Assembly: GCA_964522105.1 (NCBI GenBank)
Contig: CAZFVA010000014.1
Coordinates: forward strand, 22,677 to 84,238
Source: an uncultured Anaeromyxobacteraceae bacterium
GTDB taxonomy: Bacteria; Myxococcota_A; UBA9042; DTJE01
Direction of reading: 5' to 3'
Length of the DNA stretch: 61,562 bases
Made by a program: the position numbers and the translations under genes. Positions 46,219 to 53,866 of the stretch are shown here, piece after piece. Under the pieces are notes generated by a model. The model was not told where the DNA came from. It saw only the letters and a list, made by a program, of their open reading frames with translations, and did not search any database. Every line of letters begins with the position of its first letter. Positions within the stretch are counted from its first letter, which is position 1.

Positions 46219-47097
46219 ATGTCCCTGACAGAACAACTGAAAAAGATCATAGGGATGGAAGACGAATCTGGCACGGCCCCGGCGAAGGCCCGGATTATTG
46301 CTGTTGCAGCCAGAAAGGGCGGTGTCGGAAAGACTACGACCACTGTCAATCTTGCCGTGGCGATGTCACGGTTTTTCGGCCTTGATGTCCTTGTCATGGA
46401 CCTTGACGGGCAGGGGCATGTTTTTGAGTCGCTGTCGAAGGTTATCCCGGATACGACCGGCGCTTCACTGTCAGATATTCTTCTGTCAAACGGGCGGGAT
46501 TCCCGCGATTTGATGGATATTGTCGTGCCTACCGGCCTGGATCGTCTGTGGGTGACGCCTTCTGACAAGGGTCTTGCCGCGACAGAAGGTATTCTTGCGG
46601 GCCGCATCGGCCGCGAGTTTCTGCTGCGAAATGTAATCAGGAAGGCGGCCGCAAGGTTTGACGTGATACTTTTTGACTGTCCCCCGAATGTCGGAAACCT
46701 GACGTTGAATGCACTTACTGCCGCGACCCACGTGCTGATTCCATGTGATATGAGCGTCCTTTCACTGGCCGCAGTCAGCGACATCATCGGAGTTGTGGAT
46801 ACTGTAAACGAACAACTTGGTCATAACCTTGAGGTCCTTGGAATTCTTCCGACCCGTGTGGACAAAAGAAACGGAAGACTTACCGAAGAAGTTATGAAAA
46901 AGCTTGAACATTCATGGGGTTCACGTGTTTGTCGTACACGGATTCCTTCTAACAGCGCGCTTGCAAGGGCTCAGATGGCCGGTAAGTCGATTTTTGATTT
47001 TGAGCCGAGGGCGGCCGGTGCCACAGCCTACAAGAATCTGGCGACCGAGACGTTGAACAGAATGGGGTTTCAGATTACCAGCCGGAAACAAGACTGA
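46219..47097 (+). CDS. ParA/Soj-family ATPase with no adjacent ParB
   Basis: RKGGVGKTTT deviant Walker A, DLDGQG, FDCPP, ALTAATHVLIP, TRVDKR. Confidence 0.92.
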   Translation: MSLTEQLKKIIGMEDESGTAPAKARIIAVAARKGGVGKTTTTVNLAVAMSRFFGLDVLVMDLDGQGHVFESLSKVIPDTTGASLSDILLSNGRDSRDLMDIVVPTGLDRLWVTPSDKGLAATEGILAGRIGREFLLRNVIRKAAARFDVILFDCPPNVGNLTLNALTAATHVLIPCDMSVLSLAAVSDIIGVVDTVNEQLGHNLEVLGILPTRVDKRNGRLTEEVMKKLEHSWGSRVCRTRIPSNSALARAQMAGKSIFDFEPRAAGATAYKNLATETLNRMGFQITSRKQD

Positions 47098-48076
47098 TTC
47101 TGGAGTGGTCGGCCCACGGTAATGACGCAAGCAGCCTTGTCGCGGTCGTCGGCCGAAGGTCCGGGTTCTTTTCCATCAGATGGGCAAAGACCTCAAGAAT
47201 GACTTTCCCTGTCTCGGTGCACGCGATCGATTCGGGCATACGCGGTGCCGGGGCCTGAAGATGGGCCAGCATAAGGTCCTGCTGGTCTTCTGCATCAAAA
47301 CACGGTTTTCCCGTGATCATTTCAAACAGTACAACCCCCAGGGAATACAGGTCGCTGCGCTCGTCAAGTTGACCGCCAGACACCTGTTCAGGACTCATGT
47401 AGGCAGGTGTCCCGTCGACGGTCAGTCCATTTGGTGAAGCATTCAGGGGTGTTGCGACGCCAAGATCCATAAGGCGGACGTGTCCGGCCTGAATTTTGCG
47501 CGCATATCTTTTTCCGGTCAGGAAGATGTTTTCAGGTTTAATGTCGCGATGCACGTATCCGCAGTTGTGAACAGCCGTCAGCGCCTTTGCAACGCCTGCA
47601 AGAACTTCCCCGGCGTCGTCAGGAGACAGTCTGCCGCGCGTTGCCAGTCTGTCAGCCAGAGTCTGGCCTTCAAGCAGCTCCATCGACATGAAACAGTGTC
47701 CATCACGTGATATGCCGCCTTCATGGACGCGCACGACGTTGTCGTTTCTGATTTTTCGCATGACGGCGACTTCGGTAAGGAATAATTCACGCCAGCGACA
47801 GTCGGTGGCCATTTCTGGTGCCAGAAGTTTAATGGCGACGGCCCGCGCGGTCAGGGCATCCCAGGCGCTGAATATCCGGCACATTCCGCCATCGCCGACT
47901 TTGGTGGCTATGCGGTAGCGGAACCCGACAGACTCGCCCGGTCGCGGCAATCTTTCTGCAAGGACATGAAGGTCACCACCGTCATGCGGGCAGACGGGCG
48001 GGTCTGCTGACATGAAGACACGTCCGCATTTTTCGCAGAATGCGCTGATGGTCTGACCCCTTTTAAGACAAAACAC
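47075..48076 (-). CDS. Hanks-type Ser/Thr protein kinase with N-terminal Cys/Zn-ribbon motif (start uncertain)
   Basis: CEKC...CPHDG; VGDGG, VAIKLL, HRDIKPEN, DLG, GTPAYMSPEQ, SDLYSLG. Start set at GTG 48076 to avoid overlap with the HEPN gene. Confidence 0.85.
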   Translation of the reverse strand: MFCLKRGQTISAFCEKCGRVFMSADPPVCPHDGGDLHVLAERLPRPGESVGFRYRIATKVGDGGMCRIFSAWDALTARAVAIKLLAPEMATDCRWRELFLTEVAVMRKIRNDNVVRVHEGGISRDGHCFMSMELLEGQTLADRLATRGRLSPDDAGEVLAGVAKALTAVHNCGYVHRDIKPENIFLTGKRYARKIQAGHVRLMDLGVATPLNASPNGLTVDGTPAYMSPEQVSGGQLDERSDLYSLGVVLFEMITGKPCFDAEDQQDLMLAHLQAPAPRMPESIACTETGKVILEVFAHLMEKNPDLRPTTATRLLASLPWADHSRISLVSGW

Positions 48077-48132
48077 GCCGTACCGGTTGATTCTATTTGA
48101 TATTTTCGGGGTGGGCCAAGAAGACGACAGGC

Positions 48133-48894
48133 TTACTTCTGCAGTTTCATCGGGCGTCCGCACATCGCGCAAGGTATCTGTCCTGTGGCCGTCTGTCTTG
48201 TCCGGGGGATTCGGACCCCGCACCGGTCACAGACCAGGAACACTTTGACAAATGAACTGCCCCTTTCGTCGGTTGATCTTCCCGACCTGACATCCTGATT
48301 ATCGCCTTCATGGCGTCTGGAGCCACTGCGGCTGCGGTCTGCGTTCGTCTGGTCAAACGGCAGCGTCATGTCCGAAGGCATCTGTGTCATCAGATTGGGA
48401 TCATCAGGCAACACAGTGGGGATGCCGTCATCACCGTTGTCAATTATGGCTGAATCGATGACTTCACTCGAGGCACAACCCGGTTCGCCCAGCCCCGGTT
48501 CAGGGGCGGTCGGTTCCGCCTCAACGATATCGAATGCCTTTCTGACGGCCCAGCGCACCTTTTTGGCGGCGTACATGACGTCAGTCATTCGTGACGTTCT
48601 GCCGTCACCGGCTTTTGCTGGTGTCGTAAAAAGGGCAAGAACACCGATCTGGTCGCTGACGGCTGACAGTTCGCCGATGTCCCTGATCGTTTCGTAAACC
48701 TTTCCAATATCCCACATGACACCGGCCGGACGGTCTGCCGCCTCGCACAGTGCCCTCAGATACTTTTCCGCACCCTGGGACGCTGAGTAGCGTGCGGCAG
48801 GGGCGCTGCGGCCGGCAAGTCTGCCTGCATCAAACAGATCGTCATCAGCTTCTTCAATAAGTCCGGCCACTTCTGCGGCTTCAATTGTTTTCAT
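48133..48894 (-). CDS. HEPN-like domain protein with acidic linker and C-terminal Zn-ribbon
   Basis: ADDDLFDA..L...A.YSASQGAEKYLRAL matches HEPN helices 1-2; the usual H-D-L position reads W-D-I; C-terminal CDRC..CAMC. Confidence 0.6.
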   Translation of the reverse strand: MKTIEAAEVAGLIEEADDDLFDAGRLAGRSAPAARYSASQGAEKYLRALCEAADRPAGVMWDIGKVYETIRDIGELSAVSDQIGVLALFTTPAKAGDGRTSRMTDVMYAAKKVRWAVRKAFDIVEAEPTAPEPGLGEPGCASSEVIDSAIIDNGDDGIPTVLPDDPNLMTQMPSDMTLPFDQTNADRSRSGSRRHEGDNQDVRSGRSTDERGSSFVKVFLVCDRCGVRIPRTRQTATGQIPCAMCGRPMKLQK

Positions 48895-49813
48895 GTTTTT
48901 CCTCGTCCGGGGGATTGCACCCTGATTGCGATTCTATCTGTGTGACTGTGTCCGCGATTTCCTGATTCCGGTGACTGACCCTGGTTCTGAACCCGGCCGC
49001 ACCCAGAATTTCAGCCATGCTTTCCGCCGTTGCGACCGATCTGTGTTGTCCGCCGGTACATCCAAAGGCGACCGTCACGAGCGGTCGTCCTTCCTGTTCG
49101 TGGAGTGGAAGACTGAACCGGAGCAGTTCTGTTGTTCTGTCCAGGAAAGTCTGCCATTCAGGCAATTCCCGCAGGAATGCCAGAATTTCAGGGTCCAGGC
49201 CGGTAAGCGGGCGGAGCTGTTTAACAAAATACGGGTTTTTCAGGAATCTGCAGTCAAAGACGTAAGATGCGTCGCGCGGGACCCCGTTTCTGTATCCGAA
49301 AGATACGATTTCCACGGCCATGCGACAGGAACTAGTCTTGTCGTAAGCCCTTTGAATCATTAATCTGAGGTTGTGAATGTTGATGTCGGTAGTGTCTATG
49401 ACCCAGTCCGCCATCACCTTGATTTTTGCCAGAATCTCGCGCTCGAGGTTCACCCCGTCGCGGATTGAACCGGAGATTGATTCCAGCGGGTGCCGTCGCC
49501 TGGTTTCGGAAAATCGCCTTACCAGGACGTCTTCTGACGCATCAAGGTAGATGATTTCCAGTTTGTGGCCAAGGTCCTTGACTTTATTGACTTCGGATGC
49601 GAACGAGTCAAGCAGAAACCTTTCCCGCACATCGATTCCGATGCACATTTTCGAGATTTCCGAGTGTGTATCAGCCAGATACAGGATCTTGTCCAGAAGC
49701 GGCAGCGGAAGGTTATCAACACAGAAAAACCCCAGATCTTCCATTGCCTTGATGACAGTGGATTTTCCGGAACCGGATAATCCGGTCACGATTACAATGT
49801 GTGCTGAATTCAA
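48881..49813 (-). CDS. rapZ: RNase adapter protein RapZ (YhbJ)
   Basis: TGLSGSGKS, DNLP, RRFSETRRRHPL, SFGY, FDCRFLKNPY, GCTGGQHRSV; TTG start at 49813 after GGAGG. Confidence 0.95.
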   Translation of the reverse strand: MNSAHIVIVTGLSGSGKSTVIKAMEDLGFFCVDNLPLPLLDKILYLADTHSEISKMCIGIDVRERFLLDSFASEVNKVKDLGHKLEIIYLDASEDVLVRRFSETRRRHPLESISGSIRDGVNLEREILAKIKVMADWVIDTTDINIHNLRLMIQRAYDKTSSCRMAVEIVSFGYRNGVPRDASYVFDCRFLKNPYFVKQLRPLTGLDPEILAFLRELPEWQTFLDRTTELLRFSLPLHEQEGRPLVTVAFGCTGGQHRSVATAESMAEILGAAGFRTRVSHRNQEIADTVTQIESQSGCNPPDEEKHENN

Positions 49814-49844
49814 CGTCTGTTGGTCCTCCCGGAGCCCCGGCCAA

Positions 49845-50144
49845 TCAATGTTTGCGCTTATCCACAATGATATCTTTGTGTTTTGCGATCTGGCGGGCCA
49901 GTTTTTCAATTACCGTATCAAGAATTGGGTAAATGTCGGTCGCTTTTTCGGAAGTCTTGAAAGTTTCGCCTTTGAACTGGACCAGCAGGTCGATGTGCGT
50001 CCATGCCTTTTCCATTGCAAGCGTAACCTTGACTTCAGCGTCATCGGGAAGATGCGGCCCGACGTGCTTTTCAATCTTTGATTCAATCAGTGAGCGAAGC
50101 TCGTCTGAAACGTTAATCTGACGAAGTGTAAACTGAACCTTCAT
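49845..50144 (-). CDS. hpf: Ribosome hibernation promoting factor, short HPF/RaiA type
   Basis: 99 aa directly downstream of rpoN; LR..I..KI.K, DIYPILD....KL.RQI.KHK. Confidence 0.88.
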   Translation of the reverse strand: MKVQFTLRQINVSDELRSLIESKIEKHVGPHLPDDAEVKVTLAMEKAWTHIDLLVQFKGETFKTSEKATDIYPILDTVIEKLARQIAKHKDIIVDKRKH

Positions 50145-50166
50145 GGTGGTCTCCTTCTAAAATTAA

Positions 50167-50195
50167 TCAGCCGACCGGCCCTTGCTGCCGGCTGA
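50167..50195 (-). terminator. Possible hairpin or intrinsic terminator between rpoN and hpf
   Basis: TCAGCCG...CGGCTGA stem followed on the minus strand by TTAATTTT. Confidence 0.3.
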
Positions 50196-50200
50196 ATGAA

Positions 50201-51688
50201 CTACATGAGTTCCTTCCTTCGTGAAGAAGGTGAAATCCCAAGAGCTTCACGGTACTTTGCAACCGTGCGTCTTGCAACATTCATGTCTTCTTTCTCAAGT
50301 ATTTCCACGATTTCCTGATCGGATAACGGCTTGTTCGGCCTTTCCGCGTCAATAAGCATTTTTATACGGGATTTGACGCTCATGGAAGAGTGGTCTTCAA
50401 CCCCGTAACCACCGCTGATTCTACTGGTGAAAAAGTATTTCAGTTCAAATATGCCCTGCGGTGTGTGTACATATTTGCTGGTTGTCACGCGGCTGATTGT
50501 TGACTGGTGCATGCCGACATCGTCTGCGACTTCCCGCAGCACCAGTGGTTTCAACTGTTCGACGCCGTAGTCCAGGAAGTCCCTCTGAAAACGCATGATG
50601 CTTTCTGTAACTTTGCGAATGGTTGTCTGACGTTGATTGATGGACTTGATTAACCAGGATGCCGCTTTCAGTTTATCTTGAACAAATTCGCGGGCTTCAC
50701 CCTTCGTCTTCTTTGCCAGTGTCTTTTCGTAGTACTGGCTTATCTTCAGCTTCGGCAGACCGTCGTCATTTACAACGACCATGTACTCGTCACCGACTTT
50801 AATCACATACACGTCAGGCTGGATGTAGATGATGTCATCTGTGGAAAACAGCCTTCCCGGTTTCGGTTCCATTGACTGGATAGTGTCTATCAGCAGTTTG
50901 ACGTCATCAAGGCTCAGCTTCAGAGCCCTGGCGATGACCTGGAAATTTCGTTTTTCAAGGTCGGGAAGATGGTTGTTGATGAGCTGCTGCAGCTTGTCGT
51001 TGTCCGGCCACGTCAACTGAGCCTGGGTAAGAAGACATTCCCGCAGATCACGGGATGCAACGCCGACCGGGTCAAATTCCCTTATTCTTGAAAGGACTTC
51101 GCGCACATGTTCAACCGACGTTTCGGTCGCCTCGGCAATCTCTTCATCAGAAACGTCGACCAGATAGCCGTCTTCATTGATGTTGCCGATGACATAAGCT
51201 CCGACTTCCTGGGACCTTCGCGGCAGGTCAGACAGCTTCAACTGCCACATCAGGTGTTCGACAAGTGAACTTTTATTGCAGACAGTCGCTTCAACAGACG
51301 GGAAATCTTCGTTAGATACCCGCAGTTGCGGCCCCTGAGAGTACATTGAATACCCTTCCACATAGCGTTCCCAGTCGATCTCTTCCCGTTTGGAGCCTGC
51401 CGGGTTTTCCGGTTCAGCGTGGGCGTCGTCGGCGTCGCGGACTGCTGTGCCGCGCAGTTCATTTTGAATTTCGCCGGAATCGTCGCTTTCGCGGGCGGCT
51501 TCGTCCAGGGACAGTGATTGAGAGCCTGTTTCAGATTCTTCAAGGGCAGGGTTGGAGTCAAGCTGCTGGCGGATCTCGTCGGCAAGTTCAAGCCTGGACA
51601 GTTGTAGTAGACGAATCGCCACCTGCAACTGCGGCGTGATAATCAGTTTCTGTTGGAGCCTTGTTCCAAGCTCTTGCCGGATATCCAT
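50201..51688 (-). CDS. rpoN: RNA polymerase sigma-54 factor
   Basis: TPQLQVAIRLLQL, DPVGVASRDLRECL, KPLVLREVA...HQSTISRV, RpoN box ARRTVAKYRE; start moved to ATG at 51688. Confidence 0.97.
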   Translation of the reverse strand: MDIRQELGTRLQQKLIITPQLQVAIRLLQLSRLELADEIRQQLDSNPALEESETGSQSLSLDEAARESDDSGEIQNELRGTAVRDADDAHAEPENPAGSKREEIDWERYVEGYSMYSQGPQLRVSNEDFPSVEATVCNKSSLVEHLMWQLKLSDLPRRSQEVGAYVIGNINEDGYLVDVSDEEIAEATETSVEHVREVLSRIREFDPVGVASRDLRECLLTQAQLTWPDNDKLQQLINNHLPDLEKRNFQVIARALKLSLDDVKLLIDTIQSMEPKPGRLFSTDDIIYIQPDVYVIKVGDEYMVVVNDDGLPKLKISQYYEKTLAKKTKGEAREFVQDKLKAASWLIKSINQRQTTIRKVTESIMRFQRDFLDYGVEQLKPLVLREVADDVGMHQSTISRVTTSKYVHTPQGIFELKYFFTSRISGGYGVEDHSSMSVKSRIKMLIDAERPNKPLSDQEIVEILEKEDMNVARRTVAKYREALGISPSSRRKELM

Positions 51689-51941
51689 AACTTCATAGTC
51701 CGTGGTGTTTCGGGCGTCTGCCCGTTTCACGAGCCCCCCGGGGCGCGTGCCCGCTTCGTGCTGCTGCAGCCGGCAAGGACCACATCAAATCAACGAACAA
51801 ATCAACGCTAACAGGGGTTGGCCGGGTTGTAAAGGTTATCGCTCAATACTACAATCCACCCGCTTTCGGGTAAGTGTCGACGGCAGGATTCAGGGCGCGC
51901 GCAGATGTGCGTTTTGTGAACAGAAACGGTGTTATTGACAG

Positions 51942-53057
51942 ATGTTTGGTATCTCAGAAAAAGGTACAGGTCTTTCGTTCGGCAATATTGACCTTGCCGA
52001 CGTAGAAGCGGTTCGCCTGACATTGAGGGGCGGGTCTGTCGTCGACTGGCACAGGCTTAACCTGCAGGACAAGGACGAAGTTGACCGGTTCCTTCTTGTG
52101 AACGGTTTCGACGTTCAGGACCCTGACGACGAGACGCGACTGCTGCATCTGCTGAAAGTTGCTGTCGAATATCTGGAATCAAATTTCAATTTTCATTTTC
52201 CTGCATGCTTGAAGCAGCCGGCTGCTGTTGAAGACATTCTGTTAATGGCATCGGGCAGTTCCGAGTTCCAGAAGCTTGCCTGTGTCATCCTGAAGGTCAT
52301 GCACGTTGTCAATCACGTTGAAAGTCAGCAGCTTCGGTTCAGGCTGGCAGTGCCCGAGGATCAGCTTTTTCAGATGGCTGTCGCGAGGGTTGATCAGACT
52401 ATTGCCGCGATGAGGATTTCCGGGGCGCCGATTCTTCACTACGCCGCCAACCGCAAGACCCGTGACTCGTTGATTACCAAGCTTCTGGCCAAAAAGACGA
52501 ACTTTGCGGCGGAGGTCTACGACAGGCTTCGGTTTCGCATCATAACCCGTGAATATCCTGATATAATTCCTGTTCTTTCGTATTTGAAGGATAACCTTTT
52601 TCCATACAACTACGTCGTTCCGGGTCAGTCCAGGAACCATATTATTACGACGGCGGCCTTGCTGGGCGAGATTCCCGAGTTGTGCGCAAGGGAGCCCGGT
52701 CTGGCAAACCGCTTTCTATACGAAGATGCCGAGGATGGCGATGATCTGAACCAGGAAATTAATGCGTTTTCGGGTCAGTCCTTCAAGATGATTAACTTCG
52801 TTGTCGAGCTGCCGATCAAGGTTCGCGAGCTTGTTGCCAAAGACAATCCAGATATGGCCGAACTGGGAAATCTTGTTTACATCCAGATCGAATTTCAGTT
52901 TTTTGACGAGAAGACCTGGGCATCAAACGAAGTTGGCGACAACAATCATGAACGTTACAAGGACCGGCAGCGCTGGGAAGTTATCCGGCGGCTGGTTCAC
53001 GGTAATCGTTACGGGATGGCCGATGACCCTGGTTGGGAAGGCAAGACCCGCTGGTAG
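51942..53057 (+). CDS. TIGR04552-like protein with RelA/SpoT synthetase-fold motifs
   Basis: LRGGSVVDWHRL N-terminus recalled as typical of this family; RKTRDSLITKL, YDRLRFRII, IEFQ, NHERYK. Confidence 0.7.
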   Translation: MFGISEKGTGLSFGNIDLADVEAVRLTLRGGSVVDWHRLNLQDKDEVDRFLLVNGFDVQDPDDETRLLHLLKVAVEYLESNFNFHFPACLKQPAAVEDILLMASGSSEFQKLACVILKVMHVVNHVESQQLRFRLAVPEDQLFQMAVARVDQTIAAMRISGAPILHYAANRKTRDSLITKLLAKKTNFAAEVYDRLRFRIITREYPDIIPVLSYLKDNLFPYNYVVPGQSRNHIITTAALLGEIPELCAREPGLANRFLYEDAEDGDDLNQEINAFSGQSFKMINFVVELPIKVRELVAKDNPDMAELGNLVYIQIEFQFFDEKTWASNEVGDNNHERYKDRQRWEVIRRLVHGNRYGMADDPGWEGKTRW

Positions 53058-53068
53058 TCGGCACCGTT

Positions 53069-53866
53069 CTATTTCCCAAGCAATTCAATGATTTCGCACG
53101 CATCTGGCCGGTCGGCAGGATTTGGGGCAAGCATGTCTCGAAACAGCGCTTTGATTTTGTCATCAAGTCTGGTCAATTCATCCAGAAGCTGAATCGCGGT
53201 TGTTTCCGCGCGAAGTTTTAGAACTTCTTCAGGATGTTTTGCTTCTGCCCACGGCGTCTTCCCGGCTGTTGCCGACATCAATGAAATTGCCAGTGACCAG
53301 ATTTCAGCGGCCGGCGTCACCGGTTCACCTGCAAGCATCTGGTCGGACATGTAGTGCAGTGTTCCCAGGATAAGGTCCGACCTGTTCTGGCTGGTTTCAA
53401 CGGCTCCACGAATATCGACTAAAGTCAGTCCGTCCGAGTTGCGTCCGGCGACAGGCCCGAAAATCATGTTCGACGGGGAAACGTCGGCATGCATTACAGG
53501 TGAAACCGGGCTTCCCCTGTGCAGGTATGCCAGGGCGCACAGAGCGTCTTCAAACATGACGATGATATCGCTGCTGGAAATCTCGGTTCCGCCCATCAGG
53601 CTGCGAACGGACTTTCCTTCCACCCACTGTGAAATCTGCATCAGAGTGCCGTCGTCGTCGGTGCCGTGCCATAAAAGCTTCTGCAGGCGGGGGTGGTCAA
53701 GCTTGTAAAGTATTGATGCGTCAGGCATTACGCGTGGTGAAGCTGTCAGGGCAGAGCCGAAATAACGCCGCACAACGACATTTTTTTCGCCCAGCTTTGC
53801 AGCCCAGACTTCAACGCCGAAGCCGAAAGAAAGAGGATGTGACAGTTTAATGCCGTTCCGAATCAC
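53069..53866 (-). CDS. Degenerate Ser/Thr kinase-like protein (probable pseudokinase)
   Basis: Kinase fold (LDHPRL, ALAYLH, HADVSPSN, GTLHYMS, IWSL, RP), but beta3 Lys is Arg, DFG is DIR and APE is SDQ. Confidence 0.75.
   Translation of the reverse strand: MIRNGIKLSHPLSFGFGVEVWAAKLGEKNVVVRRYFGSALTASPRVMPDASILYKLDHPRLQKLLWHGTDDDGTLMQISQWVEGKSVRSLMGGTEISSSDIIVMFEDALCALAYLHRGSPVSPVMHADVSPSNMIFGPVAGRNSDGLTLVDIRGAVETSQNRSDLILGTLHYMSDQMLAGEPVTPAAEIWSLAISLMSATAGKTPWAEAKHPEEVLKLRAETTAIQLLDELTRLDDKIKALFRDMLAPNPADRPDACEIIELLGK

Follow-up and report, generated by a model that had tools for sequence, protein, structure and literature searches.

The window, a 61,562 nt stretch of contig CAZFVA010000014.1 from an uncultured Anaeromyxobacteraceae bacterium, contains a gene of the TIGR04552 family. 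Residues ~155–355 of its product are a true but very divergent RelA/SpoT homologue (RSH) synthetase domain. TIGR04552 and its sister TIGR04562 are family names without an assigned function; the resemblance to RSH enzymes had been half-noticed earlier, and was never classified or studied. The reading preferred here, with a probability of about one in two, is that the protein works as a pyrophosphotransferase on a non-canonical acceptor, i.e. that it would transfer pyrophosphate, in an ATP- and Mg-dependent manner, to a base-containing acceptor. The evidence consists of a fold shared with RSH synthetases, a donor side that is conserved throughout the family and an acceptor side that differs from the canonical one. 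Coordinates of all features are collected in Table 1.

Membership of the family, proposed in a first-pass annotation made from the DNA alone, is well supported. The TIGR04552 hidden Markov model matches the protein with 320.7 bits (E 1.3e-95, profile positions 3–351 of 352) against a curated cut-off of 125 bits, and the TIGR04562 model also matches over the full length (304.5 bits). The start codon is consistent with relatives at 78 % identity. Homologues number 1822 in 90 % clusters, with 1074 representatives at 50 % identity. The host genome (3.3 Mb, 78 contigs, 92 % complete) encodes exactly one TIGR04552 protein and one canonical long Rel of 733 amino acids (aa). The motifs that the first-pass annotation had picked out all lie where it placed them when compared with the translation: R171 (52452), which opens RKTRDSLITKL; D194 (52521); E317 (52890), within IEFQ; and H336 (52947), which belongs to NEVGDNNHERYK. 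SFKMINF corresponds to residues 280–286.

The proposed resemblance to RSH synthetases is likewise borne out, far beyond chance. The AlphaFold2 (AF2) model of the protein is of good quality (predicted local distance difference test, pLDDT, 83.8; predicted template modelling score 0.82). In a Foldseek comparison with the PDB, RelP, RelQ, Rel, RelA and SpoT account for all of its top 39 matches, the probability being 1.00 and the target-normalised TM-score ~0.5 for the small alarmone synthetases (SAS) RelP and RelQ, which are the best structural matches. An alignment of 197 family members (residues 100–371) was compared by hhalign with 30 long Rel synthetase regions and gave a probability of 93.1 % (E 3.2e-7). 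The sole match of the family profile in a search of PDB sequences is RelP/YwaC (6fgk); phmmer with the single protein found no PDB match. Of 30 diverse family members, 28 match PF04607 at E≤1, the best at 8.9e-6, all of these being sub-threshold. Thus, both the structural match to the RSH fold and the family-wide conservation of the catalytic residues, on which the first-pass annotation had staked its proposal, were found.

Residues were aligned to RelP by HMMER and to the genome's own Rel by hhalign, and their frequencies were taken from 197 full-length members with identities to the window protein down to ~31 %. On the donor side, K172 (193/197), S176 (188/197) and K180 (191/197) align to the canonical Lys, Ser and Lys of Syn1. 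The Syn2 equivalent retains D194 (194/197) and R199 (193/197), and R197 (194/197) replaces the canonical Gly. E317 (189/197) and Q319 (188/197) represent the ExQ motif, and they are followed by N329 (189), G332 (190), H336 (186), Y339 (188) and K340 (186 of 197). The spacing of 19 from Glu to His and the H-x2-Y-K pattern are identical to those of the genome's own long Rel. The earlier expectation that Mg/ATP residues are kept across the family therefore holds, with at least 94 % conservation for K172, S176, K180, D194, R199, E317, Q319, H336, Y339 and K340. Conservation of 94–98 % at these positions, down to ~31 % identity, is indicative of strong purifying selection on the donor/Mg residues.

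The functions of the equivalent residues are known from characterized enzymes. In SaRelP, K80, S84 and K88 bind the ATP phosphates, with K66, S70 and K74 as their equivalents in FaRel2 (PMC5794853, PMC11782079). D107 and E174 of SaRelP hold Mg2+, R112 stacks on the adenine and H190 contacts the donor ribose (PMC5794853), while in FaRel2 the donor adenine is read by E145 and Q147 and contacted by the backbone of G93 (PMC11782079). The Mg2+ ion bridges the β and γ phosphates and the acceptor 3′-OH (PMC7983052).

The donor side lacks one canonical residue. The Arg of the canonical RxK motif (R78 in SaRelP, R64 in FaRel2 and R249 in Thermus thermophilus Rel) stacks on the adenine and contacts the α and β phosphates; R249A strongly lowers Rel activity (10.1101/670703), and FaRel2 R64 has been called crucial (PMC11782079). 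In TIGR04552 the corresponding position is residue 170, which is Asn in the window protein and Ser (130), Asn (33) or Gly (30) among the 197 members, and never Arg. The ‘R-K-x3-S-x3-K’ motif of the first-pass annotation is thus correct for its Lys, Ser and Lys, aligned to RelP and Rel, and out of register for its Arg: R171, 68 % conserved, adjoins the canonical Arg position and is not its equivalent. R197, on the neighbouring strand, may substitute functionally for the lost Arg.

On the acceptor side, the alignments indicate a pocket that is rebuilt relative to canonical RSH enzymes. The segment that canonically reads PGRxKDYI...KPN is replaced by a family-specific insertion of ~60 aa, located between the second strand/helix and the G-loop strand, in which P221, N223, P227, N232, N274, F276 and S277 are near-invariant. 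The G-loop itself has the family consensus Y-R-x-I-N-F, as opposed to the canonical G-Y-x-S-x-H, and reads S-F-K-M-I-N in the window protein. The canonical His falls at position 285, which is Asn in 159 members (81 %), Ser in 12, Lys in 8 and His in 5. After ExQ, the canonical R-T of ExQIRT is replaced by a hydrophobic residue (Phe or Val) and D322, an Asp in 191 of the 197 members. Taken together, the insertion, the His-to-Asn change and the replacement of R-T by x-Asp suggest that TIGR04552 proteins differ from (p)ppGpp synthetases in their acceptor or in how they hold its phosphates. On this pattern the acceptor would most likely be a purine nucleotide other than GDP/GTP, or one with fewer phosphates.

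The first-pass annotation had described an insertion and a unique N-terminal domain, both of which are upheld by the hhalign gap, the AF2 model and null searches. Its argument from the G-loop stands in part. The His-to-Asn change is a trait of the family; the Tyr-to-Phe change is not, since position 281 is Tyr in 133 members and Phe in 55, with at least 19 switches between the two on the family tree. A residue this variable between clades cannot by itself define a new acceptor. Frequent interchange is nevertheless worthy of attention because Tyr-to-Phe is the standard catalytically impairing change in RSH enzymes (FaRel2-Y128F, PhRel2-Y143F, FaRel-Y175F; PMC11782079). The annotation had also taken the G-loop Tyr and His as selecting GDP/GTP; stacking by the Tyr is documented (PMC5794853, PMC7983052), and a selecting role for the His finds no support in those two sources.

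The same residues bear on the possibility that TIGR04552 is an ordinary housekeeping (p)ppGpp synthetase, i.e. a SAS that uses GDP/GTP and provides a second, differently regulated source beside the long Rel. The RSH fold and the full set of conserved Mg/ATP residues would be expected of such an enzyme, the Y/F-R/K pair matches GYRS of RelP and RelQ, and the genome encodes, beside a long Rel, a separate HD hydrolase of RSH type by which the product could be broken down. Additionally, (p)ppGpp is central to the starvation responses of myxobacteria. However, the canonical acceptor residues have been systematically replaced (His by Asn, R-T by x-Asp, PGRxKDYI/KPN by the insertion), which removes three or more of the canonical basic or His positions and introduces an invariant Asp. 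The frequency of Tyr/Phe interchange also speaks against it, as Tyr-to-Phe impairs the canonical enzymes. On balance this explanation is considered unlikely, though the likeliest of the alternatives.

Under the preferred reading of an active enzyme with a non-canonical acceptor, the following course could be envisaged. The protein would be a cytoplasmic, chromosomally inherited, stand-alone RSH-fold enzyme expressed from its own sigma-70-type promoter. ATP would occupy the RSH donor site, where K172, S176, K180 and K184 would hold its phosphates, R199 would stack on its adenine, E317 and Q319 would read that base, and H336 would contact its ribose. With Mg2+ held by D194 and E317, the acceptor would stack its base or ring on residue 281 (Phe in the window protein, Tyr in the majority of the family) and receive the β,γ-pyrophosphate on one of its hydroxyls. 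Part of the donor site would have been relocated, the RxK Arg having been lost and the new invariant R197 gained on the neighbouring strand.

Several observations weigh against this reading. Taken alone, the window protein matches PF04607 with 15.9 bits (E 0.016; residues 172–218, model positions 4–49), below the gathering threshold of 27 bits. The pocket residues were assigned by alignment. Loss of the RxK Arg matters, and compensation by R197 is pure inference. The aromatic-Arg pair Y/F281-R/K282, as in GYRS of the SAS, would be compatible with an ordinary guanine nucleotide as acceptor. Phe281 is equivalent to the impaired Tyr-to-Phe variants of toxic SAS (toxSAS), and the proteins of the window's clade could therefore be weak enzymes. 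Finally, a search of the literature for the TIGR04552 family found no function and no biochemical data for any member.

Some of these points are shared by a different explanation, in which the protein is a catalytically weak or dead RSH-fold sensor or scaffold, for example an accessory of the gliding machinery or of a kinase-like partner. It would account for the absence of an adenine-stacking Arg that is important in Rel (10.1101/670703), for a Phe in the window clade at the stacking position where Tyr-to-Phe variants are impaired (PMC11782079), and for a PF04607 score below threshold. Neighbouring genes that vary by lineage (gltI-gltJ in Myxococcia, Ser/Thr kinases in Polyangia and the window clade) and a Myxococcus xanthus gene reported with mild phenotypes only (10.64898/2026.08.28.747804) would fit as well. 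Pseudoenzymes, however, normally lose their metal-binding and catalytic residues, which are here the very positions that remain conserved in the most distant members. A weak or dead protein is thus regarded as improbable.

The RSH synthetase domain has a polymerase-β-like nucleotidyltransferase fold, and the first non-RSH match of the AF2 model, at Foldseek rank 40, is a TdT/Pol μ chimera. Together with the heavily rebuilt acceptor side and a protein-kinase gene immediately downstream in 19 of 84 loci, this leaves some room for other nucleotidyltransferase-fold chemistry, for example adenylylation or another nucleotidylation of a small molecule or protein, or pyrophosphorylation of a non-nucleotide hydroxyl such as that of a protein side chain, possibly linked to the adjacent kinase-like gene. 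Such chemistry is very improbable: the RSH-specific ATP-binding residues (the K-S-K helix, ExQ and HxxYK) are all retained, the retained aromatic stacking platform suggests a base-containing acceptor, and adjacency to a kinase is a post hoc argument in a kinase-rich phylum.

The family was also compared with known RSH systems. Like RelP and RelQ, TIGR04552 proteins have one catalytic RSH synthetase domain and no hydrolase domain, and they have in common with them K-x3-S-x3-K, the Mg-binding Asp, the stacking Arg, the aromatic-Arg pair of the G-loop, ExQ and a terminal His/Tyr-Lys. Identity in the Foldseek alignments is only 12–16 %. TIGR04552 adds an N-terminal helical domain of ~105 residues and the insertion before the G-loop, and differs in the missing RxK Arg, the Gly replaced by R197, the G-loop His replaced by Asn and the R-T replaced by x-Asp after ExQ. 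The Glu-to-His spacing of 19 compares with 16 in SaRelP (E174/H190, PMC5794853). Tetramerization helices and an allosteric pppGpp site, at which no search was aimed, did not come to light. Long RSH proteins (1VJ7, 5XNX, 6S2T, 7QPR and the genome's own Rel at L004 799–3000) have a homologous core with the same ExQ...H-x2-Y-K spacing, but only they carry HD, TGS and ACT domains, and their motifs PGRxKDYI, KPNGYQSxH and EIQIRT are not conserved in TIGR04552. The window protein stops ~15 residues past the synthetase domain and has no HD, TGS or ACT domain.

Another candidate was DsRel/SAS-TPR (Treponema denticola Tde-SAS), a recently characterized RSH SAS family of Deltaproteobacteria and spirochaetes (PMC10434055). 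DsRel has an N-terminal catalytic domain with canonical Syn1–Syn4 followed by a C-terminal TPR region, whereas TIGR04552 has the opposite order and no TPR match. An identity of TIGR04552/TIGR04562 with DsRel was rejected on this domain order (PMC10434055).

The N-terminal region contains a strictly conserved motif, R25-x2-L28-x-G30-x-S32-x2-D35-W36, and the two long helices that follow it contain the invariant residues A113, C114, L117, K118, H121 and H125. Foldseek alignments to SAS chains of 185–200 residues span 226–245 columns, from which it is inferred that they take in part of these helices. Folded alone, residues 1–160 gave no Foldseek match in the PDB (best E 1.1), and a profile of the N-terminal domain matched no PDB sequence. 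A decayed HD hydrolase was considered as the origin of the domain; a permissive hhalign run had paired ACxxLKxMH with KLADRxHNM of Rel. This candidate was rejected, given an hhalign probability of 1.6 % against the Rel HD domain and null Foldseek and PDB sequence searches; the region is thus not a degenerate HD domain of the long RSH type. Residues 1–32 have a pLDDT <50 when residues 1–160 are folded alone, compared with 74–86 for residues 11–40 in the full-length model. Confident modelling only in the presence of the catalytic domain suggests that the conserved motif packs against that domain.

At the opposite end, the C-terminal tail (residues 361–371, 53022–53054) ends in G-K-T-R-(W/F/x) only in the clade whose TIGR04552 gene is linked to rpoN. 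The tail is WEGKTRW in the four closest relatives and FAGKTRF, FPGKTRV or LGGKTRQ/H in more distant clade members. It is not present in members from Myxococcia and Polyangia.

The arrangement at the N-terminus recalls the toxSAS, which are divergent RSH domains with non-guanosine acceptors; FaRel2, CapRel and PhRel2 are tRNA pyrophosphokinases, and FaRel and Tas1 are (pp)pApp synthetases. In some toxSAS the N-terminus is extended by an ordered segment and the positive patch of the acceptor site is reduced (PMC11782079). Those that target tRNA keep the donor site and the stacking residue, have a smaller positive acceptor patch, and fold their N-terminal extension back beside the G-loop (PMC11782079, 10.1101/2021.04.30.441581). 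TIGR04552 also has fewer of the canonical basic residues on the acceptor side, its N-terminal segment is modelled confidently only with the catalytic domain, and in the window's clade the ribosome-hibernation gene hpf is a neighbour. These features raise the possibility of pyrophosphorylation of RNA 3′ ends, for example the CCA of tRNA as by FaRel2, CapRel and PhRel2, with the protein acting as an endogenous regulator and not as a toxin. The prospect is a faint one. The protein is acidic, no conserved basic surface cluster is evident from sequence, adjacency to hpf is clade-specific, and the gene lacks an antitoxin or immunity partner, is single-copy and vertically inherited, and has no PADLOC match. 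Two residues that the toxSAS retain, the RxK Arg and the Gly (R64 and G93 of FaRel2), are also different in TIGR04552.

A role in toxin-antitoxin systems or defence was examined separately and rejected. No small partner open reading frame (ORF) lies beside the gene in the ORF list of the window, its flanks being rpoN and a kinase-like gene, and PADLOC returned no match for it; there is no antitoxin, immunity or secretion context here. The isoelectric point of the protein is 5.3, with medians of 6.4 for the family and 7.2 for the catalytic half. Pfam searches of longer family members revealed no informative domain fusions. At least 575 species genomes carry a TIGR04552 gene, mostly from Myxococcota with some from Oligoflexia/Bdellovibrionota, and the family is close to universal in myxobacteria. 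In a sample of the phylum it is found in 198 of 301 genomes and 137 of 209 genera, nearly always as one copy, and in none of 14 control genomes. Single copy number, this wide distribution, a conserved promoter of its own and the lack of an antitoxin partner argue that it is not a toxSAS; its profile is that of a vertically inherited housekeeping or signalling gene.

The promoter referred to is a predicted sigma-70-type site, whose hexamers and spacer block (GGTTGTAAAGGTTA...CTACAATCC) are kept in the four closest of the related loci (L007–L010). Inspection by eye of the intergenic region next to rpoN for a sigma-54 promoter (GG-N10-GC) gave no match; the sigma-70-type site is present instead. 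The stretch 51827–51900 (+ strand) takes in the promoter and, past it, a short GC-rich hairpin in the 5′ leader, which is CCCGCTTTCGGG in the window and CCGCGCC...GGCGCGG in L007, L008 and L010.

Table 1. Features of the TIGR04552 locus in the window
Feature	Position	Strand	Details and basis
rpoN (50201–51730), hpf (49845–50144) and rapZ (48881–49909), divergent from the TIGR04552 gene	48881–51730	−	Pfam matches
Sigma-70-type promoter-like site, TTGTAA-17 nt-TACAAT	51827–51855	+	Predicted; ~85 nt upstream of the start codon
TIGR04552 family coding sequence	51942–53057	+	371 aa, end includes stop codon; ORF and TIGR04552 match
N-terminal helical region, residues 1–105	51942–52256	+	Helices in AF2 model
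Two long helices before the synthetase core, residues ~106–160	52257–52421	+	AF2 helices H110–134 and H139–159
Donor phosphate-binding motif K172-x3-S176-x3-K180 (Syn1 equivalent)	52455–52481	+	Aligned to RelP and long Rel
D194-R-L-R197-F-R199 (DxxGxR equivalent, Syn2)	52521–52538	+	Alignments and family conservation
Family-specific insertion, residues ~219–280	52596–52781	+	Gap against Rel in hhalign; AF2 secondary structure
G-loop equivalent F281-K-M-I-N285-F286	52782–52799	+	Aligned to RelP NGYRSLH and Rel gYqSLH
E317-F-Q319-F-F-D322 (ExQ, Syn4)	52890–52907	+	hhalign alignment; family conservation
N329-E-x-G332-x3-H336-x2-Y339-K340 (AExGxAAHWxYK equivalent)	52926–52961	+	hhalign alignment
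Protein-kinase-like gene, 265 aa, convergent	53069–53866	−	Pkinase E 3e-20; 11 bp past the TIGR04552 stop codon

Gene context was compared across 84 related loci, including the window. The divergent rpoN-hpf-rapZ group noted in the first-pass annotation is confirmed by Pfam, but the arrangement is limited to the window's clade (relatives of at least ~48 % identity) and occurs in 11 of the 84 loci, among them L003, L007–L013 and L020. The stress or dormancy role drawn from it does not therefore generalize to the family. Two further genes follow rapZ on the − strand (47075–48894). The first overlaps the 3′ end of rapZ with its start and encodes a 253 aa protein that has a CxxC...CxxC zinc ribbon at its C-terminus and no Pfam, NCBIfam or PADLOC match. 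The second is a Ser/Thr kinase gene, and both are kept in the same order in L007–L010.

Downstream of the TIGR04552 gene, a small kinase-like gene and dnaJ are likewise neighbours only in the window's clade. The kinase-like gene adjoins the TIGR04552 gene in eight clade loci besides the window, and in L003 the two are co-directional and overlapping. Its motifs, read from the translation, are degenerate (the Lys of VAIK is Arg, HRD is HAD and DFG is DIR), which suggests that the product may be a pseudokinase. In the Polyangia-type loci (n=11), a large unrelated Ser/Thr kinase gene lies convergent and just downstream, such that the kinase-adjacent loci mentioned above fall into two deep clades.

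A different context prevails in the Myxococcia loci (n=35; L002, L015–L079, e.g. L002 1–9107). Here the gene is co-directional with, and directly after, a giant TPR gene and a ZnR-GYF gene, the counterparts of gltI and gltJ in the focal-adhesion machinery for gliding (for the domain make-up of GltJ, see PMC11135422). In Myxococcaceae, two small genes for predicted secreted proteins or lipoproteins intervene, and ffh is convergent downstream in Myxococcia loci. MXAN_4858 of M. xanthus, a member of the TIGR04552 family, likewise follows gltI-gltJ (10.64898/2026.08.28.747804), where the window gene is instead divergent from rpoN. Within the window's genome, a search for a gltJ-like gene gave only weak partial matches, on other contigs.

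The host genome also encodes a stand-alone, 395 aa RSH-type HD hydrolase-like protein (L090 652–1839, − strand; G000 contig C15 ~63871–64071). It has HD...LHD...KLADRMHN motifs, an HD_4 match of 38 bits and a match to the spoT_relA N-terminal region (E 4.9e-13), and carries a C-terminal extension of ~200 aa without assigned function. Degradation of the product of Rel or of the TIGR04552 protein is a possible role.

The varied neighbourhoods are accommodated by a broader and more tentative proposal, namely that the RSH-fold pyrophosphokinases of TIGR04552 form a branch of their own in Myxococcota and Bdellovibrionota, inherited mainly vertically, whose rebuilt acceptor pocket makes a product other than (p)ppGpp and which has been wired to different machines in different lineages. 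Candidates for that product would be a nucleotide second messenger of a new kind and an RNA or protein that has been pyrophosphorylated. The machines would be read as the Agl-Glt gliding complex in Myxococcia, Ser/Thr kinases in Polyangia, and rpoN-hpf-rapZ with the pseudokinase-like gene in the window's lineage.

Earlier sightings of the family are few. The 2011 RSH census (Atkinson) lists unclassified ‘SYNTH[S]’ proteins in M. xanthus DK1622 (YP_633016.1) and Sorangium; for Anaeromyxobacter, Haliangium and Bdellovibrio it gives no RSH protein but Rel. PF04607-like sequence occurs in the genomes of Corallococcus and Myxococcus at Rel and at the TIGR04552 gene and nowhere else; thus the census entry YP_633016.1 is most likely a TIGR04552 orthologue. 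The protein cluster checked for that accession contained only records of metagenome-assembled genomes. In a transposon screen, MXAN_4858 of M. xanthus showed glt-like fitness (bioRxiv 10.64898/2026.08.28.747804). During experimental evolution of Bdellovibrio sp. NC01, a small indel in the TIGR04552 gene DOE51_RS08710 reached high frequency in one population (PMC9888234), a hint that cells kept constantly with prey tolerate losing the gene or benefit from it.

Through (p)ppGpp, RSH enzymes govern how bacteria grow, become dormant, develop and tolerate antibiotics. Divergent members found recently make (pp)pApp or pyrophosphorylate tRNA, and TIGR04552 is a further branch, of phylum-wide extent. 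Its hosts undergo multicellular development that depends on alarmone signalling, and the gene often lies at the end of a gliding-motility cluster. If the protein makes plain (p)ppGpp, it would be the missing ‘second synthetase’ of myxobacteria and would show how far the G-loop can drift. Activity on a new acceptor, in turn, would give myxobacterial biology an additional signalling nucleotide or macromolecular modification.

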